The notes under the pieces are model-generated. The model worked only from the letters and a program-made list of their open reading frames with translations, was not told the origin of the DNA and searched no databases. A stretch of DNA of 64,000 bases, from the NCBI GenBank assembly GCA_039024555.1, contig JBCCQQ010000034.1:1-64000 (forward strand), read 5' to 3'. The stretch is from Cyanobacteria bacterium P01_D01_bin.156 (GTDB taxonomy: Bacteria > Cyanobacteriota > Cyanobacteriia > Phormidesmidales > Phormidesmidaceae). Positions 25,003-51,572 of the stretch are shown here, in pieces (the first letter of the stretch is position 1; each line of letters begins with the position of its first letter). The position numbers were made by a program, and so were the translations under genes.

Positions 25003-26193
25003 CTAAGGGGAAGACTTCTGGGCTTGAGGTGGACTTGCTTTGGATAAAAGAGACCAGGGCAACGATGTTTTTTGAGGATAAACAGCTGACAACGTACTTT
25101 TGATAGCTGGAACAGTTTCAACTGGATGAATGAGGTCTGCAAATTTTGCAGCACTTCGAGCTAGGGTGCGGTTTTTGTAATGGGCATAGGCATTACTGGC
25201 AATAGCTTGTAGGGCTGTGGGTTGAGAAATTATTGGTAGTGCTGATGTTGTTACATAGTGATGATTTGCGGCAATATCATCCTGAGTCGTTAGCCCATTT
25301 CCATTACAAATGGGCAACACCCCATGGGACGCATAGGCGGCATACACGGTAGATTTGGCTAGATTCTGTGGGAAACGACGATAGTCGAATATCCCAGCTA
25401 AAGACTCAGCCAGTAATTGACTGACTTCAGGCGCGGTTAAAAAACCGGTCTTTATAATGTCTACGTTTAGCCCCTGACCATCCCAATTTACGGGGCGACC
25501 TACGTCGTAAAGGGTGTTAATGTTTAAGACTTTGCAAATATGATTCAGGGTGTTGATATTGTTTCGATAAACACGGGTGCGATCGCTACTGCCAAACACA
25601 ATTAGAGATCGCTTACGCTGCGATAGCGGCTTCACTGTCTGTAATTCCCCGATGGTGGAATAGTTGGGAATACAGTGCACGGGTGTTTGCGTCCATCCAG
25701 ATAGCGTTTGCTGAAATGCAGCATTATTGGTGATTGCCACATCCGCCACCTGGGCTAACCCACGGGATACTCGCCGCTGCACAAAATTTGGACAGCGAAT
25801 CTGCTTGTATCTCAATGTCGGTAGCTCATGGAACATCACTAGAATCCTCACCCCCCTTTGCTTCAACGCTCTCAGTGCATTTACGAGCCACATAGGCGCA
25901 TCTAGTTTTCCCCGCAAATAGGGATAATTACTATACTGAAGCAAAATAGTTGATATGTTGCTTGGCACTTTGTCCAGAAAGCCTTGCACCGTATGGCTAT
26001 CCAAATCATGTACCGGAAACTGATCCAGTTGAGGCTGGAGTTTAGGGTTGGGCCGAAAGACTAAAAAATCTGACAAGATCTGATGTTGGTCATAGAGCTG
26101 GTGGGCCAACTGCAACGAATAATCTCCCACACCGTCCACATCGGGTGAAATGCGAGGAACAATCTGTAGAACTCGATTGGATTGGACGGTCAT
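25003..26193 (-). CDS. Glycosyltransferase (GT-B, GT4-like)
   Basis: DGVGDYS, VMFHE, IPNYSTIGE, KSTVYAAYASHG. Confidence 0.8.
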   Translation of the reverse strand: MTVQSNRVLQIVPRISPDVDGVGDYSLQLAHQLYDQHQILSDFLVFRPNPKLQPQLDQFPVHDLDSHTVQGFLDKVPSNISTILLQYSNYPYLRGKLDAPMWLVNALRALKQRGVRILVMFHELPTLRYKQIRCPNFVQRRVSRGLAQVADVAITNNAAFQQTLSGWTQTPVHCIPNYSTIGELQTVKPLSQRKRSLIVFGSSDRTRVYRNNINTLNHICKVLNINTLYDVGRPVNWDGQGLNVDIIKTGFLTAPEVSQLLAESLAGIFDYRRFPQNLAKSTVYAAYASHGVLPICNGNGLTTQDDIAANHHYVTTSALPIISQPTALQAIASNAYAHYKNRTLARSAAKFADLIHPVETVPAIKSTLSAVYPQKTSLPWSLLSKASPPQAQKSSP

Positions 26194-26252: not shown

Positions 26253-28820
26253 TCATGGCAGTTTGGACAGGGATGTTTTTAACTGGTCCACCAATAACGG
26301 TGTGGATTGCTGATTAAATAAATTGCCAAAGAAGCCCGGTACTGTGGCTATCTCCACACCATCCTTGGCGACTATCTGCCAGCCCAGTTCGCGGCCAAAA
26401 TACCAATCTAGGATTTGATTTTTGGCACGAAAGAGTTTTACGTTACCCGCATAGGGTCGAGGGACATAGCTGGCCGCCGCTTGTTCATTGGCTTTTTGGG
26501 CGCGGGCGTAGCGGTATTCATAGGAAACGTTAGGCTCCGATGTTTCTGCCACATCTTCACCGATAGATGACGACGACAAGTTTTCGGAGCTGGCAGAAGA
26601 ACGGGCAGGTCTAATCTTCTGCAAAATTTTCCCTGGCAGGCGGGTCATATTCTCCCATCTCCCATGGTAGTAATAGTTTTTACGGAGCCAAAATACGCCC
26701 AACTGTAAGCGGCTTTGTAGCTTCGTTAGCGGTGTCTCAGGCAGTTCACCAGGACGATAAGAGTCAATTAAAATAACACTCTCCACATCTTCACCCTCCG
26801 CCTGGAGCTGTTGAGCTATCTCAAACGCTATAGCGCCCCCTAGACAATGTCCTCCCACCAAATAGGGACCTGTGGGCTGCACCATCCGCATTTCTCTAAT
26901 GCAGTCTGTTGCTAAAGCTTCCACAGTGGTATAGGTGACTTCACTGCCGTCAAGGTCAGGCCGCTGTAGGGCATAGAAGGGCCGTTCTGTTCCTAGTAAA
27001 TGGGAAAATCTAGCCCAGGTGAGGGCATCGGCGGAACCACCATGGAAAAATAGGGGCAGCCGCTGACCACTGGTTTGGATAGGAACCAAACTAGACCATT
27101 GAGAGACTGGCTGTTCTTGGCTTAGGAGTGCGGCAAATTGGCGAATATTGGGAGCCTGAAATAATGTGGCCAATGGCAGACTGCAGTCTAACTGCCGCTG
27201 CATCTCATTAAATAGCTGTACGGCTAAAAGCGAATTACCACCTACGTCAAAGAAGCTATCTTGCACACTGAGGGGAGCCACGCCTAAAACAGCTTCCCAA
27301 ATTTGAGTTAGCTTTAGTTCCAGGGGATTGTTGGGGGCAAAAAAGCGGCCTTCTAAGCGATCGCGACTCAGATTTGATGGGTCTAGGGCATTCTCTTCTG
27401 TAGCAGATGTCATCACAGCTGGTGACGGAATAAGTTCACCTACACTTGCCTCCGTAGACTGCAGAATTGTTTCCAACACCGCTTTGAACTGACTCACCAG
27501 AGTGGATAAAATTGCGTTCGATAGCGCTTCACTCTGTAACAAAATTGTCAGCTCCTGCCCTGGCTTGACCACCACGGTTAACCCGTAGGTGCTTACCAGA
27601 CCCGATTGCACATCTTTCACCTGAAAACCATGGTCTACTGAGGTCTGTATAGGGTAGTTTTCAATAACTAACAGACTGTTAAACAACTGGCCTGATACCT
27701 CACTCCAGGACTGAATTTGGTCCGGTGAGGCATAGCCGTAGCGGCTGGCTGTGGCTTGATGGGTTTGCAAATCCTGCAGCCAGGCTAATACGGGTTGTTC
27801 ACGAGAAACGTTGACCCGCACAGGCAATACATTGATCAGCAGCCCCACAATTGATTCGATTCCAGGTAAATCTCCTTGACGACCTGAAACCGTAGCACCA
27901 AAGAGAATATCTGATTTGCCGCTGTAGCGATGCAACAACAGTGCCCAGATGCCCTGCATCAGAGTATTGAGGGTGAGGCGGTGCGATCGCAAAAATGTCT
28001 GCATCTCAGCTGTGGTCTCAGAAGAAAGCACAACAATAGGCGAGGCTTTATTATTATCAACGCCATCAGGCATACTGGGGTTTTCCAAATTCTGGGGGGG
28101 AGCAGGTTCAAAGTCCCCCAGGATTGGGGGATTTAGGGGGCCTCGATGACCGGTAGCTTCTTTCCCGAAAATGTCCTTATCAGTCAGCCTCGGCAAGGCT
28201 GTAGCTTCTAAAAATCCGGCCAGTTCCCGTCGCCAAAACTCTGCAGCAGCGGCCTCATCCTGTTGTTTGAGCCAACGTACATAGTTTTGATAGGTGGGCA
28301 CAGCTTTTGAAGAGGGCAATTGGCCTTGCTGTAGTGCACCATAGGCATCAAACACTTGATGAAAGACTAATGCCCCTGACCAGCCATCTAGCATCAGGTG
28401 ATGGCAGCTCCACACCAGCTTGTAAATATGCTCGTCTAGCTGTATCAGTGCCAAACGGGAGATGGGGGCCTGGGTTAGCTCAAACCCTGCGGCCCTATCC
28501 TCTGCTAGAAAATTTTCCAGGGCAATTTGTTGATCTGTCTGATCTCGCCAGTCCAGTTCAGTCCAGGGCATTGTCACCTGTTTAGCCACCACCTGCAGGG
28601 GTTGTTTTACCCCTTCCCAGTGAACCGAGGTTCTTAGTACAGGGTGCTGTTTTATGACCCATTGCCATGCCTGCTGGAGTAAGGCGCTATCCACATCACC
28701 TTTTAGGGTGCAGCGCATGTGGATCAGGCCATCCTCAGTAGATGTTTGCAGACTGTGCCACAAAAACGCTTGCTGCAGTAGGGCCAGGGGATAGATTGTC
28801 TCAATGTTTTTCTTATCCAT
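26253..28820 (-). CDS. NRPS C-PCP-TE protein lacking an A domain
   Basis: C domain (NIETIYPL, HHLMLDGWS; post-epimerisation DCL type), PCP FFDVGGNSL, TE-like GHCLGG. No A-domain motifs. Confidence 0.88.
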   Translation of the reverse strand: MDKKNIETIYPLALLQQAFLWHSLQTSTEDGLIHMRCTLKGDVDSALLQQAWQWVIKQHPVLRTSVHWEGVKQPLQVVAKQVTMPWTELDWRDQTDQQIALENFLAEDRAAGFELTQAPISRLALIQLDEHIYKLVWSCHHLMLDGWSGALVFHQVFDAYGALQQGQLPSSKAVPTYQNYVRWLKQQDEAAAAEFWRRELAGFLEATALPRLTDKDIFGKEATGHRGPLNPPILGDFEPAPPQNLENPSMPDGVDNNKASPIVVLSSETTAEMQTFLRSHRLTLNTLMQGIWALLLHRYSGKSDILFGATVSGRQGDLPGIESIVGLLINVLPVRVNVSREQPVLAWLQDLQTHQATASRYGYASPDQIQSWSEVSGQLFNSLLVIENYPIQTSVDHGFQVKDVQSGLVSTYGLTVVVKPGQELTILLQSEALSNAILSTLVSQFKAVLETILQSTEASVGELIPSPAVMTSATEENALDPSNLSRDRLEGRFFAPNNPLELKLTQIWEAVLGVAPLSVQDSFFDVGGNSLLAVQLFNEMQRQLDCSLPLATLFQAPNIRQFAALLSQEQPVSQWSSLVPIQTSGQRLPLFFHGGSADALTWARFSHLLGTERPFYALQRPDLDGSEVTYTTVEALATDCIREMRMVQPTGPYLVGGHCLGGAIAFEIAQQLQAEGEDVESVILIDSYRPGELPETPLTKLQSRLQLGVFWLRKNYYYHGRWENMTRLPGKILQKIRPARSSASSENLSSSSIGEDVAETSEPNVSYEYRYARAQKANEQAAASYVPRPYAGNVKLFRAKNQILDWYFGRELGWQIVAKDGVEIATVPGFFGNLFNQQSTPLLVDQLKTSLSKLP
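28085..28142. repeat. Cyanobacterial palindromic dispersed repeat inserted in frame in the NRPS C domain
   Basis: AAAGTCCCCCAGGATTGGGGGATTTAGGGGGC plus a partial inverted copy. Encodes GPLNPPILGDFEPAPPQNL. Confidence 0.7.
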
Positions 28821-28856: not shown

Positions 28857-30770
28857 TTAACCAGTCAATTGACTAATAAAGTCATCCAGCTCCGTTTGGC
28901 CTAGCTCCACATCTGGAAAGTCAGACGGTGTGAAGCCCCCACTCTCTGCTGTACAGTCAGCGATCAAAGTTTTTAGAGCAACCAGATAGTGATTAGCCAG
29001 GGACTGTACCGTATCTGCTCGATACATTTGGGCGTCATACCGCCAGTTAATGTGCAGCTGTTTATCGGTGACCCAGGCGTTAATCTCTAATAGGTAGCTG
29101 CGCTGATTGCGAGAATCCCTGAGGACACCCACATCAGCATTTGGAATACGTGTTAAGTCTGAAACAGGATTGTTTTGCTGGCCCAGATAGTTAAACAACA
29201 CCTCAGAAGACTGAGCCAGTCGCTGACGGGTTTCGGCATCACCTAAATAGCGCAGCATACCGTAACCAATACCCCGATTGGGCACCTGGCGGAGCTGTTC
29301 TTTAACAGATTTCAAGTTGTCCACATCGCTATTAGCAGCATCGACGTACAGACTGACTGGATAAGTAGTCGTAAACCATCCCACTGTGCGAGATAGATCA
29401 AGTCCATCTACGATTTGTTCTCGGCCATGGGCTTCTATCTCTACTCGCACATGCCCTGTGGATGTCCCCGTCCACTGCAGCAGGGTTTGGGCCAGGGCCG
29501 TTAGTAGGGCATCGTTAATCTGGGTGTTATATACCGCTGGCACCGTTTGTAACAGCAGTTGAGTATCTTCTGAGCTGAGGGTAACCGTAGTGTTTTCAGT
29601 GGCTGCTTCCGTAAGCAATTTTATGTTTGGATAATCTCGGGGCAGCTGAACGGTGGGCTGCTCAACCTGGGAGTACCAGAAGCTAGCTTCAGACTGCCGG
29701 ATAGTAGTCTGAGCAGTCAGGGTTTCGGCCCAGGCTTTAAAGGATGTTGTTTTGTCAGGTAACGGTAAATCTGTCGTTAGTAGTTTGGCCAAATCTTCTA
29801 GAAGGATCTGCCAGGAAACCGCATCGACCACTAAATGGTGGGCACTGAGTAACAGCCAGTCTGGCTGGTGGTTGCCGCGCCTAAACAGTATGGCTCCGAA
29901 TAAGCTGCCATTCTTCAAATTCATGCTGGAGTGGAGATAACTTCCCTGGTCGGCAATGGTCTGACTCTGTTCTGTCGGAGTAAGTTGGGACAGATCCACC
30001 TGAATAACTTCAGGTGGATTGCTGTCATCAGCATTTATCTGCTGAGAGTTTTCAAACCGCATTCTCAAGGCATCGTGATGAGTCCAGAGCGTTGTAATGG
30101 CATCCTGTACTCTCTCGCTATCGACCATGGGCAACTCTACCAACATGGCCTGGTGCCAGTGGTGAGGGGCCATCATCTTTTGCTCAAAAAACCAGTGCTG
30201 AATGGGGGTGAGGGGAACTTCCCCTGTGACGACTTCCTGGGTTGCAGCTACTTGAGATGCACCGGTCGCCACCGCTGCCAGCTCTGCTACTGTGGGTTGT
30301 TCAAACAGCTGATTAGGCGCTAGCCCCAAACCAGCCTCCCGCGCCCGTGAAACAATTTGAATACTTAAGATAGAATCGCCACCTAGCTCAAAAAAGTTGT
30401 CGTGGATGCCAATGTTGTCTAATTTCAACACGGCCTGCCAAATGCCGAGCAGTGTGGCCTCAGTCTTTGTTCGTGGAGCGTTTGTGATGATATTCGAGGA
30501 AGAAAACTGTGGCTCTGGCAGGGCATTAATATCAATCTTGCCATTGGCGGTACGGGGTAGCGCGTCCAGGGAGACAATTGCGGCAGGCACCATGTAGTTG
30601 GGCAGCTTGGATTTGAGTAAATCCTTTAGCTCATGGTTGCTCAGGACATCTTTAGTCGGTTTAGGCACCACATAGGCCACCAACCGTTGGGAGTTAGATA
30701 ACTTCTGGGCCAACGCTACTCGTTGACTGGGTGAAAGCGCCATTACCCGTTGTTTAAAGTTCATGGTCAT
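28857..30770 (-). CDS. NRPS: C-terminal half of a split A domain (A9-A10) + PCP + epimerisation domain + COM tail
   Basis: RLVAYVVP...LPNYMVP...LPRTANGKID; FFELGGDSI; E motifs HHLVVDAVSW, EAHGRE, RTVGWFTT, PNRGIGYG, FNYLGQ; TPSDFP tail. ATG 30770 overlaps the upstream TGA and has a GGAGG RBS. Confidence 0.9.
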   Translation of the reverse strand: MTMNFKQRVMALSPSQRVALAQKLSNSQRLVAYVVPKPTKDVLSNHELKDLLKSKLPNYMVPAAIVSLDALPRTANGKIDINALPEPQFSSSNIITNAPRTKTEATLLGIWQAVLKLDNIGIHDNFFELGGDSILSIQIVSRAREAGLGLAPNQLFEQPTVAELAAVATGASQVAATQEVVTGEVPLTPIQHWFFEQKMMAPHHWHQAMLVELPMVDSERVQDAITTLWTHHDALRMRFENSQQINADDSNPPEVIQVDLSQLTPTEQSQTIADQGSYLHSSMNLKNGSLFGAILFRRGNHQPDWLLLSAHHLVVDAVSWQILLEDLAKLLTTDLPLPDKTTSFKAWAETLTAQTTIRQSEASFWYSQVEQPTVQLPRDYPNIKLLTEAATENTTVTLSSEDTQLLLQTVPAVYNTQINDALLTALAQTLLQWTGTSTGHVRVEIEAHGREQIVDGLDLSRTVGWFTTTYPVSLYVDAANSDVDNLKSVKEQLRQVPNRGIGYGMLRYLGDAETRQRLAQSSEVLFNYLGQQNNPVSDLTRIPNADVGVLRDSRNQRSYLLEINAWVTDKQLHINWRYDAQMYRADTVQSLANHYLVALKTLIADCTAESGGFTPSDFPDVELGQTELDDFISQLTG

Positions 30771-31540
30771 ACCCCTCCTCCATTCTGGGTTACCCGGCAA
30801 TAAAGCTGGAAAAGAGTGCTGAGCAGTGACTTTGGCATCAGCCGATAGTAGGTGGAAAAGCGTCGATTAACCCTATTAGACTGTCGCTGTGTGGGCATGG
30901 TTAGCGGAGTTGATGGAGGATTTTGTTGCCCGTCGATATGGCTAATGACCTGAGCAACGTTTTCTGTAAAAGACTCCACAAGGTCTTCATAGGTAATCGC
31001 GTAATAGTCCAATTGGTTGGTTTGAAAAAACGTCTGCCAGCAGTGATTTTGTTCTTTAAGGCTCTGCTCCCATTCGTAAATCTTCCAAGGTTGAAATTTT
31101 ACGGGGCGTAATTTGTTAGATGTGTTGTGCATGCTTTTTTCCCATTGTCCTGTTTGGGATGCGATCGCAGCGGATACCGCCTGAGAGGTAACATCACGGC
31201 GCCACAGGTAAATAAATCTCAGATTTGGAAAAATACCATTGAGAATGTCCAAATCGCTTTTATCTCTAAACTGCGGCAGCTCTCGCCCTAGGGCAAGAAA
31301 CTCCATCAGCTGCCACCAGTGCATCTTGATGCCAAATCTATCCGGGGTATCCTGGGTAAAAATAGAGTGGCAGTACTGCAAAAAGTCGTCGGGAGAATTC
31401 TCCAGATTTAACGCTTCTAACCTGTGACGATGAAAATATTCCTCCGGCTGGCCAAATCCATCTAAGGTTTCTAGGGTTCGACAGAGCAGGGTGCTACCGG
31501 AACGCACCGTGGAACAGACAATGTAGTTATTCTTTGTCAT
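30767..31540 (-). CDS. Stf0-family sulfotransferase
   Basis: RSGSTLLC, PEEYF, FGIKMHW, RRD...QAVS, ITYEDL. Confidence 0.88.
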   Translation of the reverse strand: MTKNNYIVCSTVRSGSTLLCRTLETLDGFGQPEEYFHRHRLEALNLENSPDDFLQYCHSIFTQDTPDRFGIKMHWWQLMEFLALGRELPQFRDKSDLDILNGIFPNLRFIYLWRRDVTSQAVSAAIASQTGQWEKSMHNTSNKLRPVKFQPWKIYEWEQSLKEQNHCWQTFFQTNQLDYYAITYEDLVESFTENVAQVISHIDGQQNPPSTPLTMPTQRQSNRVNRRFSTYYRLMPKSLLSTLFQLYCRVTQNGGGV

Positions 31541-32904
31541 GACACAATCCCTCCCAGTTCTGCAGCGTGGGAAACGGGCAACGACCTTACAAGAGATTCC
31601 ACCACTTGAGCCACACGATTTTCACTACGATATCGCTGGCAACAGGCGCGTATAGATTCCACCGAGGTTTTATACCGTTTTTCCTGTAGCAGAGATGTGA
31701 GATAGTCGCGTATCTGCTGTGATGAATCTCGGAGAATGTCTCCTGCAATTCCTACACCGTGGTAGGCAACCCGCGCAGCATCCCCATCCTGGTCAAACTG
31801 GTGGAGAGAATACACCAGCATGGGTACACCAAAATAAAGACATTCGTTAATGCTGTTGATACCACCATTGTTAATGGCGCAGTCCGCCTGCTTTAGTACC
31901 TTTAGCTGCGGCACCCAGGTAAAGGTGTGAACGTTCTGGGGCAGTTTTGGCAGGTCGTTAACACTCAGCTGCCCTCCCAGCCCCAAAATCAACTCCCAGT
32001 CAGAGTCAATAGCCGCGATCAACCTTTGCAAAAACTGCTGATTGTTTTTTGCAAAGGTACTGCAAGAACAATAAAGCAAGGAACGTCCTGTAGCTCGGCA
32101 CCGCTCGAAAATGGTTTCTAAAGCCACTTCTGTAGATATATCAACTCGTGACTCGGGCCGATTTTCTAGCACCATAGGCCCCACATAGTGCATTAGTGGG
32201 TGAGGCTCGTGCGGAAAATCCAGCTCTAGGGCATTAAAACACAGGATTGGCAGCTGACCATGGGTGTAGGGCAACAGCCACTGATCCCATGGCCACACAT
32301 GCTGCCAGGGATAGCCAATCTGTTGTGCATAGCAGCGTAGAACAGAAATCCAATCAAGTCCCATACGTCGCCAGCGCTCTCGCTGAAATGCTAACCACTT
32401 GCGCCAGCAGTGATACCACCAGTGACCAACAATACTCCAGGCGCTACCTGACCAGCCCTGGCCAGGAACAATATTTGTGTGAATCGGGGGGAGATGGGGC
32501 CGTTGCCAAATAGAGAGAAACTGACACAGCAGGGCCACCGGCAGTCCTGCCATAACAGCCGCCATCACATGGGGCTGCATTTCCATATCGATGAGCAGGA
32601 GATCGGGGTTTAGCGATCGCAACGTGCTGACAAAGTTTTGCACCCCCAGGGCCTCCACCGCCCGCTGCTGTCGTGACCGTAATGTGCGCCACTGTTGCCA
32701 GCGCCCCATGGGTGGGTCCCCGGATTGCATCACCCAGCGGTCCAGCTGAATGTAGGGAATACCTTGGGCGCTCACCGCCTCACCAAGATTGGCTGGGCTG
32801 GCATAGCTAACTTGGTGACCTGCTCGTCGCAAAGACTCTACCAACGCCAAACTGGCGTTAAACATGCCCGTTAGGCCCCCGGTGATGCAAATAATGTGGG
32901 CCAT
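31537..32904 (-). CDS. GT1 (MGT/UGT-like) glycosyltransferase
   Basis: PSPG-like box WVPQLKVL..ADCAINNGGINSINECLYFGVPML...FDQ; GHQVSY; YVGP. Confidence 0.88.
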   Translation of the reverse strand: MAHIICITGGLTGMFNASLALVESLRRAGHQVSYASPANLGEAVSAQGIPYIQLDRWVMQSGDPPMGRWQQWRTLRSRQQRAVEALGVQNFVSTLRSLNPDLLLIDMEMQPHVMAAVMAGLPVALLCQFLSIWQRPHLPPIHTNIVPGQGWSGSAWSIVGHWWYHCWRKWLAFQRERWRRMGLDWISVLRCYAQQIGYPWQHVWPWDQWLLPYTHGQLPILCFNALELDFPHEPHPLMHYVGPMVLENRPESRVDISTEVALETIFERCRATGRSLLYCSCSTFAKNNQQFLQRLIAAIDSDWELILGLGGQLSVNDLPKLPQNVHTFTWVPQLKVLKQADCAINNGGINSINECLYFGVPMLVYSLHQFDQDGDAARVAYHGVGIAGDILRDSSQQIRDYLTSLLQEKRYKTSVESIRACCQRYRSENRVAQVVESLVRSLPVSHAAELGGIVS

Positions 32905-32905
32905 G

Positions 32906-35668
32906 CTAACTACCCCCCTCCACTGCCGCCAACAGGTCCTCTGCCTGCTGGGGTTCTAGCTCAGACAATGCCTCTACCAAGTCTTCAATACGGGTATTCG
33001 CCGGGCGGGCCACCACAGTTGTTTCTTGGACAGCAGAGTGCGCTCTCAACACATCCTCAATCTCCCCCAGTTCGATCCGATAGCCCCGAATCTTTACCTG
33101 TCGGTCACATCGCCCTAGCCATTCCAAGGCACCATCTGCTCGATATCGGCCTAGGTCTCCTGTCTTATATAAACGCTCTGCAGGTAGGCCATGTCCACCA
33201 TCTGGCACCACAAATGCTGCAGCTGTTTTATCAGGCTGATTTAGATACCCTTGGGTAACCCCCGCCCCACCCACATAAATCTCGCCGACGGCCCCCGTCG
33301 GTACGGGCTGTAACTCCTCATCTAAAAGATAAATCTGTGCGTTGGGAATTACCTGACCAATGGGTACCGGTCCGGGTGCTGGCGTTGCTGGGATGCGATG
33401 AACCGTACACCACACCGTTGCTTCGGTGGGGCCATACTCGTTATATAAATCTGTTGTAGACAACTTGTCATAGTGCTGTTTCACCAAGTTAGGAGAACAC
33501 GCTTCTCCCGCCACAATCACCGTCTGCAGCGTTGATAGCTGTTCCGGGACTACAGCATCGAGCAGCAGCGAATAGAGGGTGGGCACACACAGGGTGTGGG
33601 TAATGCTCTGGGTGTCAATTAAGTTGGCTAGCTGTTGTAAATCCTGTTCAATCCTTTCTGGAGGAAGTACTAGGGTGCCCCCCTGACAGAGAGTCCAGAA
33701 AATGCCTGCCACTGAGCTATCAAAAGCAATGGACGAGAGCAACAGAAAACGTCCGACAGGGTTTGGATAAACCTGGGTGCGAGCTAGGGTAGAATGCACC
33801 AAATTACCCTGACTCACCATCACCCCTTTAGGTTTACCTGTAGACCCAGAAGTGTAAATAATATAGGCGAGATCCTCATGTTGGGGCAGGTCTCGTGCCT
33901 GCCATCGGTCTTGTCCCTGGTCTTCTACCTGTTCTAGATCATCCAAATAAACACAGTTCACCGATATTTCAGGCAAGGTTACCGACCGCTGGGTAATGAG
34001 AAATTTTGGTGCCGTGTCTTCTAAGCAATAGATAATCCGCTCCGCAGGATAACTCGGGTCCAAAGGCACATAAGCTCCACCTGCCTTTAACACCGCTAGG
34101 ATGGCAACAATCCGATCTAGCGAAGGCTTTAAACACAGGGCCACTCGGTCATTTACTCCAACACCATGGCCCTGTAGCCAATAGGCTAATGTCTCAGCCT
34201 GTTGAGCTAGTTCACCATAGGTCAGTGTCTGCCCTTCAAAAACAACAGCGGGGGCTTCCGGCGTTTTCCTTACCTGGTCGGCAATCAGCTGCTGAATGGT
34301 TAACTCTTTTGGATAATCTAGGATTTCCCAATCGGTAAGCTGTTGCTGTTCCGCTGCTGTCAATCGTGGTAAATCAGCCAGCTGGCGATCTGATTTTTCA
34401 ACAAAGGCCGTTAGCAATAGTTCTAGGTGAGTGTGTAGACGTGAGATTGCCCCCGATTCAAACCGGGCTGGGTCGTAGAGCAGAAACAGCTCTAGTGCAT
34501 TCCCTGGCAACACCAGCAACGCTAGGGGATAATTACTCTGTTCCAGGTAGCGAATATCCTGAATATCTAGATCCAGATCATTGTTCTTCGCCGTTGGATA
34601 ATTTTCAAATACCACAATACTTTCAAACAGCGGACTGCCCTGGGGGATATCGCTCCATCGCTGTACATCGCTAAGGGGCGTGGTCTCGTACTGCCGCAAA
34701 TCCAACAGTTTCTGTTGAAGCCCCTGTAGCCAGAAAACAAGATCTTGATCTGTTGCCACTGCCACCCTCACCGGTAGCGTGTTGATAAATAGCCCCACCA
34801 TGGTCTCTATGCCCTTTAGCTCTGCCGGACGCCCTGAAACCACGGAACCGTAAACAATATCGTTCTGAGAACTGTAGTGATGGAGTAGGAGCGCCCAAGC
34901 CCCTTGGAGTACGGTATTTAACGTTAACCGATGCTGACGGCAGAATGATTGCAGCTGGGCGTACAGGTCTGGTGATAGGGTAAGGGTTTGCTGTTGATAG
35001 GGCTGTTTTCCAAGACTAGCGCGCCCAGCAGGTAGGGGTGTGGGTTCGGTAAATCCTTTAAGGTGCGATCGCCAAAATGTTTCAGCATTCGATAGATCCT
35101 GTTCCGTTAACCAGGCGATGTAGTCGCGGTAAGGGTATAGAGGTGAGAGAACTGGTGTCTGTTGATGACAGTTGGCAGCGTAGCAGCTAAGAACCTCCTG
35201 CCAAATAATGGGAATGGACCATCCATCTGCCAGAATATGGTGAAAACTCCAGATAAACTGATGACTGTTGTCCCGCAGATGAATCAGCCTAAATCGTGAG
35301 ATTGGGGCCTGCAGCAGGTCAAAATCCTGGGTGCGGTCCCAAGCAAGCAGTTCAGCTAGCGCTTGTTCCTGTTCCACAGAAGACTGTCCTTGCCAGTCAT
35401 CCATCGTCCAGCTAACATCCACCTGCTGACGCACCACCTGCAGCGGCTCATCCAACCCTTCCCACAGAAATGCGGTTCTCAGTACCGGCTGTCGTGCAAT
35501 CACCTGTTGCCAAGCCTGCTGAAACTCGTTAATTTTTAGCGTTCCTTGCAGTTTGCAGGCATATTGCTCAATGTATACGCCCGACTTGGGTGCATTGAGT
35601 GCGTGGAAGAGCATACCCTCCTGTACAGGAGATAGGGGATAAATATCGGCGACGTTTTCCAGCGACAT
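32906..35668 (-). CDS. NRPS: C domain + N-terminal part of a split A domain (A1-A8)
   Basis: HHILADGWS; YIIYTSGSTGKPKG, YGPTE, YKTGDL, GRCDRQVKIRGYRIELGEIE. Ends after QETTVVAR with an acidic helix; no A10 Lys and no PCP. ATG 35668 overlaps the upstream TAA. Confidence 0.9.
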   Translation of the reverse strand: MSLENVADIYPLSPVQEGMLFHALNAPKSGVYIEQYACKLQGTLKINEFQQAWQQVIARQPVLRTAFLWEGLDEPLQVVRQQVDVSWTMDDWQGQSSVEQEQALAELLAWDRTQDFDLLQAPISRFRLIHLRDNSHQFIWSFHHILADGWSIPIIWQEVLSCYAANCHQQTPVLSPLYPYRDYIAWLTEQDLSNAETFWRSHLKGFTEPTPLPAGRASLGKQPYQQQTLTLSPDLYAQLQSFCRQHRLTLNTVLQGAWALLLHHYSSQNDIVYGSVVSGRPAELKGIETMVGLFINTLPVRVAVATDQDLVFWLQGLQQKLLDLRQYETTPLSDVQRWSDIPQGSPLFESIVVFENYPTAKNNDLDLDIQDIRYLEQSNYPLALLVLPGNALELFLLYDPARFESGAISRLHTHLELLLTAFVEKSDRQLADLPRLTAAEQQQLTDWEILDYPKELTIQQLIADQVRKTPEAPAVVFEGQTLTYGELAQQAETLAYWLQGHGVGVNDRVALCLKPSLDRIVAILAVLKAGGAYVPLDPSYPAERIIYCLEDTAPKFLITQRSVTLPEISVNCVYLDDLEQVEDQGQDRWQARDLPQHEDLAYIIYTSGSTGKPKGVMVSQGNLVHSTLARTQVYPNPVGRFLLLSSIAFDSSVAGIFWTLCQGGTLVLPPERIEQDLQQLANLIDTQSITHTLCVPTLYSLLLDAVVPEQLSTLQTVIVAGEACSPNLVKQHYDKLSTTDLYNEYGPTEATVWCTVHRIPATPAPGPVPIGQVIPNAQIYLLDEELQPVPTGAVGEIYVGGAGVTQGYLNQPDKTAAAFVVPDGGHGLPAERLYKTGDLGRYRADGALEWLGRCDRQVKIRGYRIELGEIEDVLRAHSAVQETTVVARPANTRIEDLVEALSELEPQQAEDLLAAVEGGS
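33883..33903. repeat. REP-like palindrome embedded in frame in the NRPS A domain
   Basis: GGGGCAGGTCTCGTGCCTGCC is 21/21 identical to the reverse complement of 59343-59363. Confidence 0.75.
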
Positions 35669-36513
35669 TACCCATGCCCCCCTGACAAAATACAAAAGTC
35701 AAAAAGACCGTTGGCAGATTTCTGTTGCTCTAAAATCTGCAGACCTGCAGCACCTATTTCGGTTTCCAGCTCCCCAGGGACAAAAAAGTGATGGAAAATG
35801 CCCACATAAAACCGATCGCCAAATCTAGGCTGCCAGTCGCTACCGGACACTATTGCTGCCGTTGTCGATAGCCTGTGACGAATCTTCTCCCAGAGGCGAT
35901 CTGGCCGGGTTAGCTGCACATAGGAAATCACCACTACACCCCCTGGAGAGAGCATTTTTGAACAGTGCTGCAACAGCTGGATGCGGTCCCTAGGATCAGG
36001 AAATGTGTCGTACATCCAGGGGGAAAGATATACGACATCGTAGGGAGTTTGCGGAGCATAGTCTAAAAAGTTTGCCAGTTCAAACCGAGCGGTAAACCCA
36101 GCCTTTTGCGCATAGGCTACGGCTCCGTCAATCATGGATTGGTTGTCGTCAATCCCTATTACTTCAAACCCTTGGTCGGCAAAGAATTTAGCTTCGCGTC
36201 CTTGGCCACAGAAAGCACTAAGCAACCTGCCATGGCTGTGATGCTTGGCCAAATGGGGCATGATTTTCTCTTCACAATCCAGCTGATACTGGCTGGGGTT
36301 GTAGACCGCCGAGTGAGCTTCATACACCTGGCTCATGTACTCATTCAGGGCGGATTTACCCAGCACACCCACAGCGATTGCCTGGCTCACTTGCCGTAGC
36401 TTACCGGCCATCTCCCCATTACCCATGAGAACGTTTTGAGCCAGCTTAACTCGCCACGAATTGGTTGTTTCCTGGTGTGGCATTAGTTTGTTAAGAGGTT
36501 CATTGACGACCAT
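35668..36513 (-). CDS. Class I SAM-dependent methyltransferase
   Basis: Degenerate motif I LSAFCGQGRE, VIGID, YDVVYL, LSPGGVVVI. Confidence 0.8.
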   Translation of the reverse strand: MVVNEPLNKLMPHQETTNSWRVKLAQNVLMGNGEMAGKLRQVSQAIAVGVLGKSALNEYMSQVYEAHSAVYNPSQYQLDCEEKIMPHLAKHHSHGRLLSAFCGQGREAKFFADQGFEVIGIDDNQSMIDGAVAYAQKAGFTARFELANFLDYAPQTPYDVVYLSPWMYDTFPDPRDRIQLLQHCSKMLSPGGVVVISYVQLTRPDRLWEKIRHRLSTTAAIVSGSDWQPRFGDRFYVGIFHHFFVPGELETEIGAAGLQILEQQKSANGLFDFCILSGGHG

Positions 36514-36573: not shown

Positions 36574-39500
36574 TTATCCTCCCCTGTCCACCTTATTCAA
36601 TAAGGCGGCAATTTTGCCTAGCTTTTGATTGTTCAGATTAGCCAGAGGGAAATCGACCACGGTAGCCGCCTGGGAAGCATTGGGCGAGAGGTAATGGGCT
36701 ATTTGCGATCGCACCCCCTCCATTACTTCATCTGCCCATGTCTGCACCGTCGCCTGTCGATGTATCCCACAGCTGTAGCAGCATTCCATCTGCAGCTGTC
36801 CCTTTACAACCGCCGCATTAATCTCCAGCACGTAGCGTCTTTCCCCTTTAGCACTACGGGATAACTGCAGCTCACGCACCATTTGGAACATTGATCCTGC
36901 AGGTACTAGAGCGGCCAAATCCCCCAGATAGTTAAAAAGAATTTCTGCCTGGGGGACTGCTTCCAGCTGTTGTTTAACATCAGGGTCATCACTCACATAT
37001 CGCAATACCCCATAGCCCATACCGCGATTAGGCACCGCCCGCAGCTGTTCTTTTACAGCCTGCAGCTGTTCTCTAATGTCTGATTGGGGCAGCGTTAACA
37101 GCAGCGGATATACCGTTGTAAACCAGCCCACAGTGCGGACTAAATTTACTCCAGGAACAACGCTTTCCTCTCGTCCGTGGCCTTCTAGATCCACCAGTAG
37201 CCTGCCGCCCAATGTTCTAGTCAAGGCAGTCAACAAAATTTCATTCACCTGGGCACGGGATGCTTTAGGCAGATCTTTAAGCAGTCTAGATGTGTTCTCC
37301 TTGTCTAAGGTTGTTGTAATCGTTTGTACCGATGCAACCGTATTATTGTGTGCAACCTCAGCATCTTTAGGAAGAGGGTAAATCACCGTCTGAGTAAGCT
37401 TTAACCAATGGGAAAGCTCTGGAGTAAATTTCTCAGCTGTTTTAGCTAATGCCGTTGCCCAAGCTGGAAAAGCTGTAGTTGGCAAGGGAGGCACAGGCGT
37501 TTCTCCCTTGGCCTGTTTATAGAAGCTTTCTAAATCATTTAGGAGTGTCAGCCACGACAGGGCATCAACGGCCAGATGGTGGATGATCAATACTAAACGG
37601 CTGGGTTGATTGTTTCCCAGATTGAACAGTGCAGCCTGTAACAGTCTCCCAGTGGCCAGCTCTAGGCTATTTTGCAGCTGGACTTCTGTTTCAACCATCA
37701 ACCTTGCTTGATCCGCCGCTGTCTTTTTCGAGAGATCAACATAATGCAATAATGGCCCCGGCTCTGTGGTCAATAGCTGTTGACACCAGCCTGATTCTTC
37801 TAGGGTAAATGCATATCTTAGAATGGCGTGGTGCCTCACCAACTGCTGCAGCGCAGTTTCCAACATTGCTGGGTCTATGGGCTGTTTGCTCTCTAAAATC
37901 AGGCTCTGGTTCCAATGATGAGGTTCAACAGTTACCTGTTCAAAGAAGCTCTTTTGAACAGGCGTTAATGGAACGGGTTCCGTAGATTGGAGTGGGTCTG
38001 CCACCAAATTTTGAACAGTTTCCACCTGGCTTAATACATTGGCAACTGTTGGATGTTGCAAAATCTGTTGCGGAGATAGGGCAATACCTTTCTCTGTAGC
38101 TTGAGCTGCAATCTGAATCGCTGTGATCGAGTCTCCGCCCAAATCGAAGAAATTATCGTGAATACCGATACTGTCTACTCGTAAACAGGTAGCCCACAGG
38201 TTTGTCATATAGGTCTCCCATGCACTGGTTGGAGCCGTATGGTCAATACCTCCTCCTAGGTGCTTTAGGGGTTCGTAGGCTGGGGAAGCCAGCTGACGAC
38301 GATCCACTTTTCCATTGGGGGTGATCGGAAAGTCATCCAGTACAACAAATGCACTAGGAACCATATAATCCGGCAGCTTCTGTTGTAGGAATGCACGGAT
38401 ACGTACACTATCGCGAATTGGATTTTTAACCGTGAGGTAGGCTATGAGAGACAGGCGGTCTTGCTGTATTTTTTTAGCCAGGACCACCGCCTGCTGAATG
38501 TCAGGATGTTGGCCGAAGACAGTTTCTACTTCACTTAGCTCTACTCGGAACCCGCGAATTTTTACCTGAGCATCCAGACGGCCTAAAAACTCTAGGTTCC
38601 CATCCAGTAAGTATCGAGCCTGATCCCCTGTTTTGTAGAGCTTGCCAGGACCAAATGGATTATCAACAAAACGCTGCGCCATCAAGTCTGGACGGTTAAC
38701 GTAGCCACGGCTAAGACCGGCACCACCAATAACAATTTCGCCTTTGACACCCACAGGCACCTGCTGACCTTGAGGATTGACAAGATAAACCTCATAGCCC
38801 GGTAATGCCCTGCCAATGGGAGTAATACCCTCAGGCTTGGTTATAGTGTCAAAGGAATAAAATGTGGCGCAAATGGTGGTTTCTGTGGGGCCATAGCCAT
38901 TGACAATGCGCAACTGGGGCATCCGTTGACGATAGCGCTGTAGAAGCTGTTGCTGGATGGGTTCCACACCTACCAAAATGCGATCTAAGGGAATGTCACC
39001 CTCGTATTTTTCTAAAGTCTGAATTACCAGAGGCAACAATGCTGGAGGGATATAGGCGCTTGTGATTTCGTGGGTCGTCAGATATTCTCCTAGGCCACTA
39101 GTCACTACATCTGCCGGTAAGAGGTGCAACGTTCCCCCAAAACACAGATTTGAAAAAACCTCCCACACCGATACATCAAACCCATAGGAGCACAACGCTG
39201 TTCCTGTGAGAGTATCCCGAGTGGAGGCAGTCTGTTCAAAACCTCGGACCATGGCCAGCACGTTCCGATGCTCGACCATGACCCCTTTAGGTTTTCCTGT
39301 AGACCCTGACGTAAACAGAATATAGGCCAAATCCTCAGGGGTAAGATCGACCGCAGGTGAATCCGTAGACTGCTGCTTGATGTGTGAATAATGCTCTTCC
39401 CAGATCAGGATATGTTTAGCGGTAGGACCTTGTTTCACCAGCGAACGCTGAGTCAGTAGGGTGAAGATTTGCCCATCCTCTACCATAAACTGAGTGCGTT

Positions 39501-41274
39501 CCACCGGATAGGCAGGATCAATGGGGACGTAGGCGGTACCGGTTTTTAGCACCCCTAAAATGGCCACCAACATTGCCATGGACCGTTCCATAAACAGCCC
39601 TACGGTTGACCCTTTTGTGACACCTTGCTGAATCAGATAGTGGGCCAGCTGATTTGTTTGGTGGTCCAACTCACCATAGGTTAAAGTTTCGTTTCCAAAG
39701 ACAACGGCAATCTTGCCAGCGCAACAGTCTACCTGTCGCTGAAATTCTGTTATCAGAGTTGGCGCATGGGCACTCTCTGAATTCTGGAAGGTATTAACAT
39801 CTAAAGTCTTTAGTCTCAGAGGTGGGTGGGTCGGAATAACTGAGAGATTTTTGATTGAAGCTGCTTTAGAGCCTGGATCAAGAGGCTCTTGGTTCTCCCT
39901 CTGTTTGTAAGATAATAATGAGCTCTCCTCTTCCGCCAGGATATTGACTGCACCAATCAGCTGCTGGCCATCCTGCAACCACGCATCCAACAGCTTACAA
40001 AAGTGCTCTGTGGCCCACTGTCTTTGATTATCAGAAATCAAATCGCAGTTAAAATCAAACTGCAGCGTGAAATTGCCTGTGGCATCAAAATCTTGTACTT
40101 CTAGCCGCAAATGGTGCTGGCTGTCCCCATAGCCCGAGTGAATCCAATCCGTATGGACTGGCCTGCCAGCAAAATCTGGAAATGTGACGTTGATATAGCT
40201 CAGGACCACATTCACATTGCGAGCCATGCCATGGTGACTCACACCAGATTGGGCGTAGCGTAGGAATGCCATGGATTCTTGCGCCACTTTTTTTAAGAGA
40301 GACGTAAACGTTTCTTTTGGTGAAATCTCCACCTGGAGTGGAAACAGCTCCATAAAAACACCTGGTGTATTTTTTAGCACCGGAGTGGGGCGGTTGTGGG
40401 CAGGGGCCGCTATGGCTAGCTCTGTGTTGCCGCTAATGCGATATAGGTAGGCAAACACCAGGGTTAAAAACAAATTAAACTGAGACTGATGAATTGATAG
40501 CGTTTGTGCCTCTGGAGTCTGGGCTAATGAGCGTAGCGCCTGGGAGCGCTCTGGCCCCAGCTCAAAACAGGTTCGCTCTGTTCGAGTGGTCGCTGTTTCA
40601 GTTGACTGACCATACAAAGGAATGGCTAAGGGCAAGGTCTTTTGCTTTTGTTGCCAATGGCTGATGCTTTGTTGTTGCCAGGTCGGTTGCTGTTCTTTGA
40701 CTGAAGTGGCGTACTTTGCGTAGGCAGGTAGTTCTGCCACGTCGGCCAAGTGATTGCTAAGAGATTTAGCATAGTACTCCTGTAATCGTCGGTAAAGCAG
40801 CGAAACCGACCAGTTATCTGTAATTAAGTGATGCTGATTGAAATGCCAAATAAATCGATCCGATGCCAGTTGCAACAGCGCCGAATCAAATAAGCATGTT
40901 TGTAAATTTAAGAGCTTGGTGGATTGTTCCCGCATCCACTGTTTTGATGCAGCAGAGGGATTTGCTTGTTTAGAAAAATCTATAAAAGGAAGCGTATATT
41001 CCAGGTGTGGAGCCACCTGCTGCTGTGGGATGCCATCGGATTCAACAATGGTTAACCGCAAAATATCGCAGTGGTTCACTAACTGCTGAAACGCTCTTTG
41101 AAAGTGAACGGGCTCAATTTCTCCCTGAATGGTGAAGCTAAACACCATGTTATACAGGGGACTGTCTGGATTGAGCTTTTGGCCCAACCACAATAGAATT
41201 TGTCCTGTTGTTAGGTTGGACTGGGCTGCGATCTCATCTACCTGTTGGCTCAAATTAGTGGCGTTATCACTCAC
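36574..41274 (-). CDS. NRPS module C-A-PCP-E
   Basis: HHLITDNWS; YILFTSGSTGKPKG, YGPTE, YKTGD, TPNGKVD; FFDLGGDSI; HHLAVDALSW, EGHGRE, RTVGWFTT, PNRGMGYG. Confidence 0.92.
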   Translation of the reverse strand: MSDNATNLSQQVDEIAAQSNLTTGQILLWLGQKLNPDSPLYNMVFSFTIQGEIEPVHFQRAFQQLVNHCDILRLTIVESDGIPQQQVAPHLEYTLPFIDFSKQANPSAASKQWMREQSTKLLNLQTCLFDSALLQLASDRFIWHFNQHHLITDNWSVSLLYRRLQEYYAKSLSNHLADVAELPAYAKYATSVKEQQPTWQQQSISHWQQKQKTLPLAIPLYGQSTETATTRTERTCFELGPERSQALRSLAQTPEAQTLSIHQSQFNLFLTLVFAYLYRISGNTELAIAAPAHNRPTPVLKNTPGVFMELFPLQVEISPKETFTSLLKKVAQESMAFLRYAQSGVSHHGMARNVNVVLSYINVTFPDFAGRPVHTDWIHSGYGDSQHHLRLEVQDFDATGNFTLQFDFNCDLISDNQRQWATEHFCKLLDAWLQDGQQLIGAVNILAEEESSLLSYKQRENQEPLDPGSKAASIKNLSVIPTHPPLRLKTLDVNTFQNSESAHAPTLITEFQRQVDCCAGKIAVVFGNETLTYGELDHQTNQLAHYLIQQGVTKGSTVGLFMERSMAMLVAILGVLKTGTAYVPIDPAYPVERTQFMVEDGQIFTLLTQRSLVKQGPTAKHILIWEEHYSHIKQQSTDSPAVDLTPEDLAYILFTSGSTGKPKGVMVEHRNVLAMVRGFEQTASTRDTLTGTALCSYGFDVSVWEVFSNLCFGGTLHLLPADVVTSGLGEYLTTHEITSAYIPPALLPLVIQTLEKYEGDIPLDRILVGVEPIQQQLLQRYRQRMPQLRIVNGYGPTETTICATFYSFDTITKPEGITPIGRALPGYEVYLVNPQGQQVPVGVKGEIVIGGAGLSRGYVNRPDLMAQRFVDNPFGPGKLYKTGDQARYLLDGNLEFLGRLDAQVKIRGFRVELSEVETVFGQHPDIQQAVVLAKKIQQDRLSLIAYLTVKNPIRDSVRIRAFLQQKLPDYMVPSAFVVLDDFPITPNGKVDRRQLASPAYEPLKHLGGGIDHTAPTSAWETYMTNLWATCLRVDSIGIHDNFFDLGGDSITAIQIAAQATEKGIALSPQQILQHPTVANVLSQVETVQNLVADPLQSTEPVPLTPVQKSFFEQVTVEPHHWNQSLILESKQPIDPAMLETALQQLVRHHAILRYAFTLEESGWCQQLLTTEPGPLLHYVDLSKKTAADQARLMVETEVQLQNSLELATGRLLQAALFNLGNNQPSRLVLIIHHLAVDALSWLTLLNDLESFYKQAKGETPVPPLPTTAFPAWATALAKTAEKFTPELSHWLKLTQTVIYPLPKDAEVAHNNTVASVQTITTTLDKENTSRLLKDLPKASRAQVNEILLTALTRTLGGRLLVDLEGHGREESVVPGVNLVRTVGWFTTVYPLLLTLPQSDIREQLQAVKEQLRAVPNRGMGYGVLRYVSDDPDVKQQLEAVPQAEILFNYLGDLAALVPAGSMFQMVRELQLSRSAKGERRYVLEINAAVVKGQLQMECCYSCGIHRQATVQTWADEVMEGVRSQIAHYLSPNASQAATVVDFPLANLNNQKLGKIAALLNKVDRGG

Positions 41275-41542: not shown

Positions 41543-41552
41543 GGCCTTACTC

Positions 41553-43199: not shown

Positions 43200-43202
43200 C
43201 CC

Positions 43203-44351: not shown

Positions 44352-44382
44352 GGGTAGTTAACAGTAAAATTAATAAACAGAA

Positions 44383-49136: not shown

Positions 49137-49332
49137 TAGACTTCATCAGACATAAGGGTATTTACTATCCAGTTTTCTCATTTGTTACGATTACGTTCGG
49201 AAAATTCAGTGTGCCGGAGAATGTGGGCAGAATTCACTTTCTCTAGGTTATTCAAGTTATGTTGATATCAAGGATGTTGCGGGCATTTTAAGGGCAGTTT
49301 TCTCAGCGCCCCACCCCTAGCAGGTCGATCCT

Positions 49333-51515: not shown

Positions 51516-51572
51516 AGTTTATCTAGTCGAGAGATATCAAAAGACGGTTAGCCGCAGCAGTGTCCAGATACT

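Follow-up and report, generated by a model that had tools for sequence, protein, structure and literature searches.

A functional adenylation (A) domain made of two proteins has been described for Crz1 and Crz2 (corallorazine) of Corallococcus coralloides B035, in which the domain is cut between motifs A8 and A9 and adenylation was obtained only when the two proteins were mixed (PMC11342130, published in 2024). The A8-A9 loop is also where A domains accept inserts: in cis-interrupted A domains (A8-M-A9 and other families), this permissive loop hosts a tailoring function (PMC8341866, PMC11355689). The accessible text of the 2020 catalogue of interrupted A domains mentions no glycosyltransferase or sulfotransferase insert, and 'glycosyl' is absent from it (PMC8341866, PMC11355689).

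We analyzed a stretch of 64,000 nucleotides (the window) from Cyanobacteria bacterium P01_D01_bin.156 (contig JBCCQQ010000034.1). The original prediction held that an A domain is distributed here over two genes, with genes for a GT1-family glycosyltransferase (GT) and a Stf0-type sulfotransferase in the gap, and both translations and the Pfam scan agree with it (Table 1). On the first half, Condensation was matched at residues 7-445 and AMP-binding at residues 463-809; neither AMP-binding_C nor a methyltransferase domain was called by Pfam on this protein. The second half contains AMP-binding_C at residues 28-78, corresponding to profile positions 27-76 of 76 only, followed by PP-binding (residues 106-166) and a second Condensation match in the epimerase-type position (residues 182-609). 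Because of these domain limits on the two proteins, the cut is placed inside the small C-terminal subdomain, past A8 (RGYRIELGEIE) and ahead of A9 (LPNYMVP) and A10 (NGKID). Together with the available review passages, the same limits substantiate the predicted position of the cut at the A8-A9 loop, the site of inserts in cis-interrupted A domains (PMC8341866, PMC11355689). A1-A8 thus reside on one polypeptide and A9-A10 open another, as in a two-protein A domain. In cis-interrupted A domains the auxiliary domain lies within the same polypeptide (PMC8341866, PMC11355689), whereas here stop and start codons at each junction delimit separate genes. AlphaFold2 (AF2) models of the first and second halves had mean pLDDT values of 85.5 and 78.5, respectively.

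Table 1. Features of the split A-domain locus and its surroundings
Feature	Position in the window	Strand	Size and basis
Starter cassette: putative 91-aa carrier protein, stand-alone A domain, acyl-CoA dehydrogenase-like and ornithine cyclodeaminase-like proteins	41267..45486	-	Sequence searches
Stand-alone A domain of the starter cassette	41553..43199		
Upstream module C-A-PCP-E with ordinary unsplit A domain	36574..41274	-	AMP-binding 511-858; complete AMP-binding_C 915-989
Class I methyltransferase upstream of the first half	35668..36513	-	Pfam; same placing in L005 and L011
First half: C, A core (A1-A8) and C-terminal tail	32906..35668	-	920 aa; translation, Pfam
Acidic tail (residues 889-920), proposed C-terminal docking element	32909..33004	-	Predicted helix-turn-helix, conserved motif
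GT1-family glycosyltransferase	31537..32904	-	455 aa; EryCIII-like_C, UDPGT (Pfam)
Stf0-type sulfotransferase	30767..31540	-	257 aa; Pfam PF09037
Second half: head, A9-A10, PCP and E	28857..30770	-	637 aa; translation, Pfam
Basic head (residues 1-28), proposed N-terminal docking element	30687..30770	-	Predicted helix-turn-helix, conserved motif
A9 (LPNYMVP), A10 (NGKID, catalytic Lys78) and strand RLVAYVVP	30531..30686	-	Invariance in alignments
Next module C-PCP-TE without A domain	26253..28820	-	Pfam; kept downstream in related loci
Conserved 396-aa protein, family not assigned	25003..26193	-	Homologues in 13 related loci
Second sulfotransferase (Sulfotransfer_1/3), conserved in the family	23938..24945	-	Pfam; tblastn

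The genes follow each other very closely. TAATG at 35670..35666 joins the upstream methyltransferase gene to the first half, a gap of 1 nt at 32905 (TAG-c-ATG) separates the first half from the GT gene, and ATGA overlaps link GT to Stf0 (31540..31537) and Stf0 to the second half (30770..30767). The last three junctions, and the GGAGG-like runs located 3-18 nt 5′ of the three starts, can be read directly in the sequence, just as had been reported. All junctions are translationally coupled. The second half begins with the basic helix that had been predicted, but its start is the ATG at 30770, which reads MTMNFKQ, and not MNFKQ, which is a second possible ATG at 30764.

The related set comprised 17 cyanobacterial loci, of which 15 span both halves; L003 contains the GT gene and the second half only and L016 was uninformative. 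The order C-A(1-8), GT, A(9-10)-PCP-E was found in 15 of 15 spanning loci, and the split is hence not unique to the source assembly. Approximately 63 protein clusters bear the tail and 54 bear the head; of the 119 non-self relatives listed for the second half, 54 open with the head and then A9, as do nine more distant ones. Sixty-three cut sequences (62 relatives and the window's own protein) and the single unsplit protein P0228 form one clade (support of 99 SH-like in FastTree and, for 35 rows, of 100 SH-aLRT). Placing P0228 as sister to the split clade or nested within it changed the lnL by 0.31 (p-AU 0.51). The cut was probably a single event near the root of a marine cyanobacterial cluster family, within the insertion-tolerant A8-A9 loop, and the GT gene would have been kept in the gap ever since.

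Several candidates were discarded in the course of these searches. An automatic 'split' label on 72 rows proved too wide, with nine of them being contig-truncated or mislabelled ordinary domains. P0126 (1574 aa), taken at first for an unsplit form, is really an upstream A-PCP fused to C-A(1-8) and the tail, and is therefore also split. Among loci L020-L036, the 11 inspected contain ordinary unsplit A domains. When a profile of the head plus A9-A10 was run against a sample of 400 genomes, the window's own protein was the only one among the 150 listed of 867 matches to start at profile position 5; the remaining 149 lie within long open reading frames and match the profile from position 18 or beyond.

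The original prediction had drawn attention to an acidic end on the first half and a basic start on the second. Both turned out to be conserved, predicted helix-turn-helix elements of opposite charge, with the exception of one neutral head. The motif DSLVxALAxLxPExAEALLAAxE is kept in all 15 tails, whose net charge ranges from -3 to -11, and LxQRVxALSPxQRxALAQQL is found in all 17 heads, whose charges lie between 0 and +5, with 16 of them positive. In the AF2 models, residues 883-889 are disordered and lead into two tail helices (894-902 and 906-917), predicted with moderate confidence (pLDDT blocks of 65, 74 and 52), and the head forms helices at residues 5-10 and 14-24 with low pLDDT (41-60). 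The lengths of the tail and head linkers co-vary (Spearman 0.75, n=15, kinship left uncorrected). Complex prediction with the tail (886-920) and the head (1-35), based on custom alignments and carried out without controls, yielded an ipSAE of 0.23 in both runs, against a mark of 0.32. As inferred from their charges, predicted helices and linkers, the tail and the head most likely dock onto each other.

In cyanobacterial megasynthases, pairs of class 2 docking domains connect entire modules, bridging a carrier domain and a KS or C domain. The head appears to resemble such ordinary N-terminal docking domains. Its profile matched the CurH docking part of the CurG/CurH fusion (PDB 4MYY) weakly, at E 0.11, with the LSPxQRAALA motif in common, and its best non-self match among the 12,941 open reading frames of the same genome was the N-terminus of a canonical NRPS subunit that lies downstream of a PKS (E 0.0016). 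The tail matched no docking domain at E up to 10 in the PDB or in its own genome, and no similarity was detectable to the C-terminal docking end of that genome's PKS. Whereas class 2 pairs link modules, the tail/head pair would link two pieces of one domain, with a tail that has no match among them.

We consider it likely that this is a natural and functional A domain composed of two separate proteins, probably His-activating, that is put together again by its docked helical ends. Protein 1 carries the C domain and the large A core and ends with the A8 hairpin, a helix and a strand, which make up the small subdomain's first third, and then the tail. The remainder of that subdomain opens protein 2 after the head: it runs from the strand RLVAYVVP through A9 to A10, where the catalytic lysine sits, and is followed by PCP and E. 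Each cut end bears a flexible linker and a short predicted helix-turn-helix, acidic on the tail and basic on the head. Docking of tail and head would hold two strands together, upon which the small subdomain could refold and the A domain work as usual.

The GT gene scored above the Pfam cut-offs for EryCIII-like_C (48.7 bits; cut-off 31.7) and UDPGT (36.5 bits; cut-off 19.5) and below that of the NCBIfam MGT subfamily (105 bits; cut-off 260). A GT homologue occupies the gap in all 15 loci spanning both halves, and its dN/dS is 0.141-0.199. Half of the 54 head-bearing relatives (27) apparently pair with a close GT homologue, judging from an identical length of their longest contig, including records from Dapis, Crocosphaera and LEGE 11480. 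In a sample of 400 genomes from the phylum, none matched the GT at E ≤ 1e-30; the sample therefore missed the gene-cluster family. The Stf0 gene matched PF09037 over profile positions 2-242 of 244 (101.6 bits; cut-off 22) and reached 83.3 bits against the trehalose 2-sulfotransferase equivalog NF047724 (cut-off 400), and it has the same fold family as trehalose 2-sulfotransferase, which does not imply a shared substrate. No Stf0 homologue was found by tblastn in the 17 related loci; the gap is wholly or partly present in 16 of them. The proposed order C-A(1-8), GT1, Stf0, A(9-10)-PCP-E is thus reproduced in relatives with respect to the GT (15/15) and fails with respect to Stf0 (0/17). In the gap of other loci, a methyltransferase-like gene, not significantly similar to NRPS methyltransferase domains of known structure, or an unknown gene stands beside the GT, and the number of intact tailoring genes between the halves varies from one to three. 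The gap acts like a slot in which the GT is constant and other tailoring genes come and go.

The GT and Stf0 are most simply viewed as ordinary soluble tailoring enzymes, with Stf0 probably sulfating the sugar added by the GT. In an alternative scheme, the locus encodes a non-covalent interrupted A domain: the GT, here together with Stf0, would bind the junction or the rebuilt subdomain and PCP and modify the PCP-tethered residue on-line. The gap position of the translationally coupled GT gene in 15 of 15 loci, the correspondence of the A8-A9 gap to the place where cis-interrupted A domains hold their tailoring domains (PMC8341866, PMC11355689, available passages) and the insertion of further tailoring genes into the same gap are in line with this scheme, which we nevertheless regard as unlikely. 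Since Stf0 occurs in the gap of the source window only, it is not part of a conserved machine, and gap contents vary. The GT tree conflicts with the second-half tree (p-AU 0.0004 and 0.0008, for groups named after the trees were seen), and such swapping is not what one would expect of a tightly co-adapted partner. Of 6583 GT relatives, the best 150 are without exception stand-alone proteins (294-504 aa), and the fused homologues that were sought, of the form A8-GT-A9, were not found among these 150; nor was any terminal extension of the GT seen relative to out-group relatives. Inheritance suffices to explain the gene order: the constant presence of the GT in the gap fits simple inheritance, and a functional link would fit it equally. 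There is little probability, too, that the docked junction acts as a landing pad at which GT and, in this lineage, Stf0 assemble and glycosylate and sulfate a PCP-bound, possibly His-derived, residue during chain assembly. If this were true, the system would be a non-covalent 'interrupted A domain' of modular build, and a swap of gap genes could exchange its tailoring cassette.

The split might instead mainly serve exchange or regulation, by allowing PCP-E, C-PCP-TE or the gap cassette to be swapped through recombination or the A core to serve more than one carrier, for instance that of the A-less last module. The history of the GT is at odds with its flanks, fusion states vary (L014 and L018 encode the second half and the next module as one protein, and in P0126 an upstream A-PCP is joined to the first half), and a terminal C-PCP-TE without an A domain is present in every related locus covering it, all of which would suit this explanation. 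Yet the two halves gave concordant trees for the only pair tested (L013 and L015), a breakpoint at the junction is not supported for the window/L019 pair (p-AU 0.20), and the last module cannot complement the A core likewise because it has no A9-A10 piece of its own. We hold exchange or regulation to be improbable.

It is more doubtful still that the split A domain is a dead insertion relic, with PCP2 being loaded in trans, for instance by the stand-alone A domain of the starter cassette. That A domain and the A-less terminal module do occur in the cluster, and trans loading must therefore take place somewhere in it. Against a relic, all core motifs and the A10 lysine are kept in sequences down to ~50% identity, and eight of nine pocket residues of the first half are invariant in 52 of 52 sequences. 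A8 is invariant among first halves. In the second half, all 17 sequences share L56, P57, M60, V61, P62, N76, G77, K78 and D80; in a set of 45, L56, P57, P62, G77, K78 and D80 remain invariant, with M60, V61 and N76 present in at least 90%. There were no frameshifts or internal stops in the 15 loci. The dN/dS ratio was 0.105-0.13 for the first half and 0.127-0.161 for the second, that is, about 0.10-0.16 on both, which answers the earlier concern that the halves might be decaying; values for the tail and the head (30-33 codons each) were 0.12-0.42 and 0.11-0.21, respectively. Collectively, these data support a genuine and ancient split that is subject to purifying selection.

That the split stems from an error of assembly or sequencing, for example a chimeric contig or a spurious stop codon, deserves next to no credence, and nothing was found in its favour: the identical cut is present in 15 independently assembled records, including those of the isolates Leptolyngbya sp. 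PCC 7375 and Heron Island J, and a second assembler gave the same sequence across the three junctions, in a contig build from the probable source run that covers 28857..35449 with 0 differences and 0 gaps and, using the same reads, does not constitute independent data. This DNA run, from a marine metagenome, is the only sequencing run listed as containing the stretch; no RNA run is listed.

Signature positions follow GrsA numbering and were read from the motifs of both proteins. The resulting ten-residue specificity signature is identical to one listed for His-activating domains in the available part of PMC12283262, and by this likeness the A domain probably activates His. Around the split module, the cluster contains the upstream and downstream genes listed in Table 1; the 91-aa open reading frame at its start would encode a carrier protein, judging from its sequence, and the conserved 396-aa protein had no Pfam or NCBIfam match at 0.001 (weak Glyco_transf_4, E 0.042). 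For the uncharacterised cluster family, we predict a His-containing product that is modified by glycosylation and sulfation.

The cyanobacterial A domain resembles Crz1/Crz2 in that it is cut between A8 and A9 and the A9-A10 piece opens the next protein (PMC11342130). Crz1 carries an embedded N-methyltransferase before the cut, whereas the cyanobacterial first half has none; the crz genes are adjacent, whereas the cyanobacterial halves are separated by one to three intact tailoring genes; and the word 'docking' is absent from the accessible text of the crz paper, whereas the cyanobacterial ends bear conserved helix-turn-helix elements (PMC11342130). The Crz system belongs to a different phylum, and its activity needs both proteins (PMC11342130). 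The original statement that no NRPS with this layout had been described consequently needs qualification: the split itself has a precedent in Crz1/Crz2, as far as the accessible text goes (PMC11342130), and the statement stands for tailoring genes between the halves of a split A domain, for which our literature searches returned no example. The principle of a split A domain has been known since 2024; a cut that flanks tailoring genes, without an embedded domain, appears to be new.

Taken together, a cut inside an NRPS A domain is not a one-off and has persisted as a stable design across dozens of cyanobacterial clusters. In engineered split NRPSs, synthetic zippers or transplanted docking domains rejoin the fragments, which are mostly cut between domains. 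The system described here would share short helical adaptors with them and, unlike them, has a natural cut inside a domain. For engineers it offers a split site within an A domain that is natural and tested by evolution, with a putative adaptor pair and no embedded domain. For the biology of these cyanobacteria, it raises the question of whether the position of genes inside a split domain reflects history only, or tailoring enzymes that assemble on the synthetase.

The A domain is encoded by two separate genes and is cut between motifs A8 and A9. In the 920-aa protein that carries C-A(1-8) (the first half), Pfam called AMP-binding at residues 463-809 and did not call AMP-binding_C, which was found at residues 28-78 of the 637-aa A(9-10)-PCP-E protein (the second half), covering profile positions 27-76 of 76 only. 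Translation places A8 (RGYRIELGEIE) and the strand TTVVAR on the first protein, and the strand RLVAYVVP, A9 (LPNYMVP) and A10 (NGKID) on the second. Both genes belong to a minus-strand operon of NRPS and tailoring genes running from 45486 down to 23938, with the junction sequences TAG-c-ATG, ATGA and ATGA, TAATG further upstream, and GGAGG-like runs preceding every start at the junctions. Translations, Pfam matches and junction sequences bore out the genes, motifs and junctions of the original prediction; its start of the second half, the ATG at 30770, also stood, and the N-terminus, which reads MTMNFKQ, was the only correction needed.

Genes of the operon and the gene directly upstream
Feature	Coordinates	Strand	Remark
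HupE/UreJ_2 membrane protein	45545..46798	-	directly upstream of cluster
Ornithine-cyclodeaminase-like protein	44383..45486	-	
Acyl-CoA-dehydrogenase-like protein	43203..44351	-	
Stand-alone A domain	41553..43199	-	
Putative carrier protein, 91 aa	41267..41542	-	sequence reading only, no family scan
C-A-PCP-E	36574..41274	-	
Methyltransferase	35668..36513	-	
C-A(1-8)	32906..35668	-	
GT1 glycosyltransferase (GT)	31537..32904	-	
Stf0 sulfotransferase (ST)	30767..31540	-	
A(9-10)-PCP-E	28857..30770	-	
C-PCP-TE	26253..28820	-	without A domain
396-aa protein of no family	25003..26193	-	no Pfam/NCBIfam match; weak Glyco_transf_4, E 0.042
Second sulfotransferase	23938..24945	-	

The first four genes of the operon (41267..45486) form a starter cassette; by analogy with pyoluteorin and prodigiosin-type pathways, this combination suggests a proline-derived, pyrrole-2-carboxyl-like starter. 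All related loci that extend over the terminal C-PCP-TE module likewise have no A domain in it. The 396-aa protein is conserved, with two copies each in the related loci L013 (14633-15670, 17065-18159) and L018 (14845-15900, 17461-18549).

The split is neither an artefact nor unique to the window. A search with the second half listed 119 non-self proteins, the best of 5359 at E <= 1e-20, of which 54 (50-73% identity) open with the same N-terminal element (the head) and pass straight into A9; a similar head starts nine relatives that are more distant (45-49% identity), and the remainder are ordinary NRPS pieces. Sources include Leptothoe, Adonisia, Leptolyngbya sp. PCC 7375 and Heron Island J, Dapis, Crocosphaera and many marine cyanobacterial MAGs. 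With the A domain portion of the first half as query, 120 proteins were listed, and sequence and tree placed 63 rows with the cut, the window's own included, in one clade (three of them truncated in or before the acidic C-terminal tail). A scan of species genomes yielded 79 loci, 17 of which (L003-L019) belong to the split-A-domain family; L003 holds only the GT and the second half, and L016 only downstream genes. The order C-A(1-8) / GT / A(9-10)-PCP-E / C-PCP-TE was found in all 15 loci spanning both halves. When records were paired by the length of their longest contig, a close GT homologue lay on the same contig for at least 27 of the 54 head-bearing proteins, a lower bound as near-identical proteins are merged in clusters, and for none of the nine distant ones.

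The gap between the halves behaves as a cassette slot. The original prediction had proposed searching genomes for the order with GT1 and Stf0 together between the halves; the GT lies there in every locus spanning both, and Stf0 occupies the gap in the window only, with none in the 17 loci (tblastn, E <= 1e-10, >=30% identity, >=80 aa). The GT is the sole gap gene in ten loci. L007-L010 carry a methyltransferase-like gene of 241-244 aa before it (Methyltransf_23, E 1e-7), and L004 carries a 569-aa no-family protein (6102-7811) together with the same methyltransferase-like gene, both before the GT. In L007 (7892-8617, 241 aa) the Pfam match covers the C-terminal part of the profile only. The second-half alignment rejected a pairing of L013 with L017 (p-AU 0.0004) and the GT alignment rejected L013 with L015 (p-AU 0.0008), values that are optimistic as the groups were named after FastTree trees had been seen; the first half, like the second, pairs L013 with L015. 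The GT tree thus disagrees significantly with the second-half tree: members of the family have exchanged the GT without the halves moving along, and it has stayed in the gap. Fused homologues, also considered in the original prediction, did not emerge: the best 150 of 6583 GT relatives were all 294-504 aa, with no A-GT fusion. Recruitment of GT or ST to the split domain is possible and as yet unsupported.

The cut ends have a recurrent architecture. On the first protein the strand runs into a variable linker and the tail motif DSLVxALAxLxPExAEALLAAxE; the second opens with the head motif LxQRVxALSPxQRxALAQQL, succeeded by a variable linker and QRLVAYVVP. AF2 predicted helices at residues 894-902 and 906-917 of the tail, preceded by disordered residues 883-889, and at 5-10 and 14-24 of the head, with low to moderate confidence, as expected of unpaired docking elements. 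Net charges were -3 to -11 in 15 of 15 tails and 0 to +5 in heads (positive in 16 of 17), and the longer the tail linker, the longer the head linker tends to be (Spearman 0.75, n=15, p 0.0013, kinship ignored). A short tandem peptide repeat, made of three NKEP units and then DKK-like ones, occurs within the tail linker of L014 (8217-8477, +); the linker expands freely.

The head profile matched CurH within the CurG-CurH docking fusion 4MYY (QQIKQLSPLQRAALA; E 0.11, ranking third among 177,635 sequences). Among 12,941 ORFs of the window's own genome, its best non-self match fell at the N-terminal end of a contig C8 NRPS subunit (E 0.0016), which is preceded by a PKS with a typical helical acidic C-terminus. 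As judged from sequence, these matches indicate that the head belongs to an ordinary type of N-terminal docking element. At the C8 junction (48099..58759, +) a 356-aa gene, monooxygenase-like by sequence reading only (no family scan), lies between the acidic PKS end and the NRPS N-terminus with its LSPxQR motif, so that the layout of docking end, tailoring gene and docking start seems to occur at a normal subunit junction too. For the tail, no similarity to known docking domains was detected.

In all 15 tails and all 17 heads, A8, A9 and A10 are invariant. Full-protein alignments (52 and 45 sequences) show most of these positions, including Lys78, unchanged and the others at least 90% conserved. 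For three unsaturated pairs (NG86), dN/dS was 0.105-0.13 for the first half, 0.127-0.161 for the second, 0.141-0.199 for the GT, and 0.12-0.42 for the tail and 0.11-0.21 for the head (only 30-33 codons each). Decay, an outcome that would have counted against the original prediction, is not taking place in either half.

The ten pocket residues were counted from motifs by GrsA numbering; eight of the nine on the first protein show no variation across 52 of 52 sequences, and the tenth is the A10 lysine on the second. Full-text search found the signature in one paper (PMC12283262), which lists it among those of His-activating domains and states that the beta-hydroxy form is accepted. In the operon, no gene stood out as a hydroxylase. 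The gene upstream of the cluster encodes a HupE/UreJ_2 protein, of a family annotated for nickel/cobalt transport; together with the predicted His residue it hints at a metal-binding product.

The nearest unsplit relative and the only close one, P0228 (1542 aa, C-A-PCP-E), shows 60% identity in the A core and 54% over the entire second half, whose C-terminal end it shares. It forms a clade with the split rows, apart from six ordinary A domains (SH-aLRT 100); the tree fits a sister and a nested position alike and so does not reject a single origin of the cut. In P0228 the A8-A9 loop is short (residues ~880-905, PSQ...SQRL) and has a likeness to both ends of the head motif; it gives the impression, no more, of what a deletion would leave of a head, and the protein may be a secondary re-fusion. 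P0126 (Leptolyngbya sp. BC1307) joins an upstream A-PCP to the first half, and in L014 (10001-14656) and L018 (9752-14746) the second half continues as one protein into the next module, C-PCP-TE. As these fusions shift other borders only, the cut inside the A domain is the constant element while other subunit borders move.

Interrupted A domains carry embedded domains at A8-A9 within one polypeptide (PMC8341866, PMC11355689). In a literature search covering few subscription journals, neither this cyanobacterial cluster family nor tailoring genes lying between two halves of an A domain came up in any paper. In this family the two-protein A domain is real and conserved, its halves are probably held together by a docking pair, and a slot for tailoring genes lies within the cut of the A domain itself.
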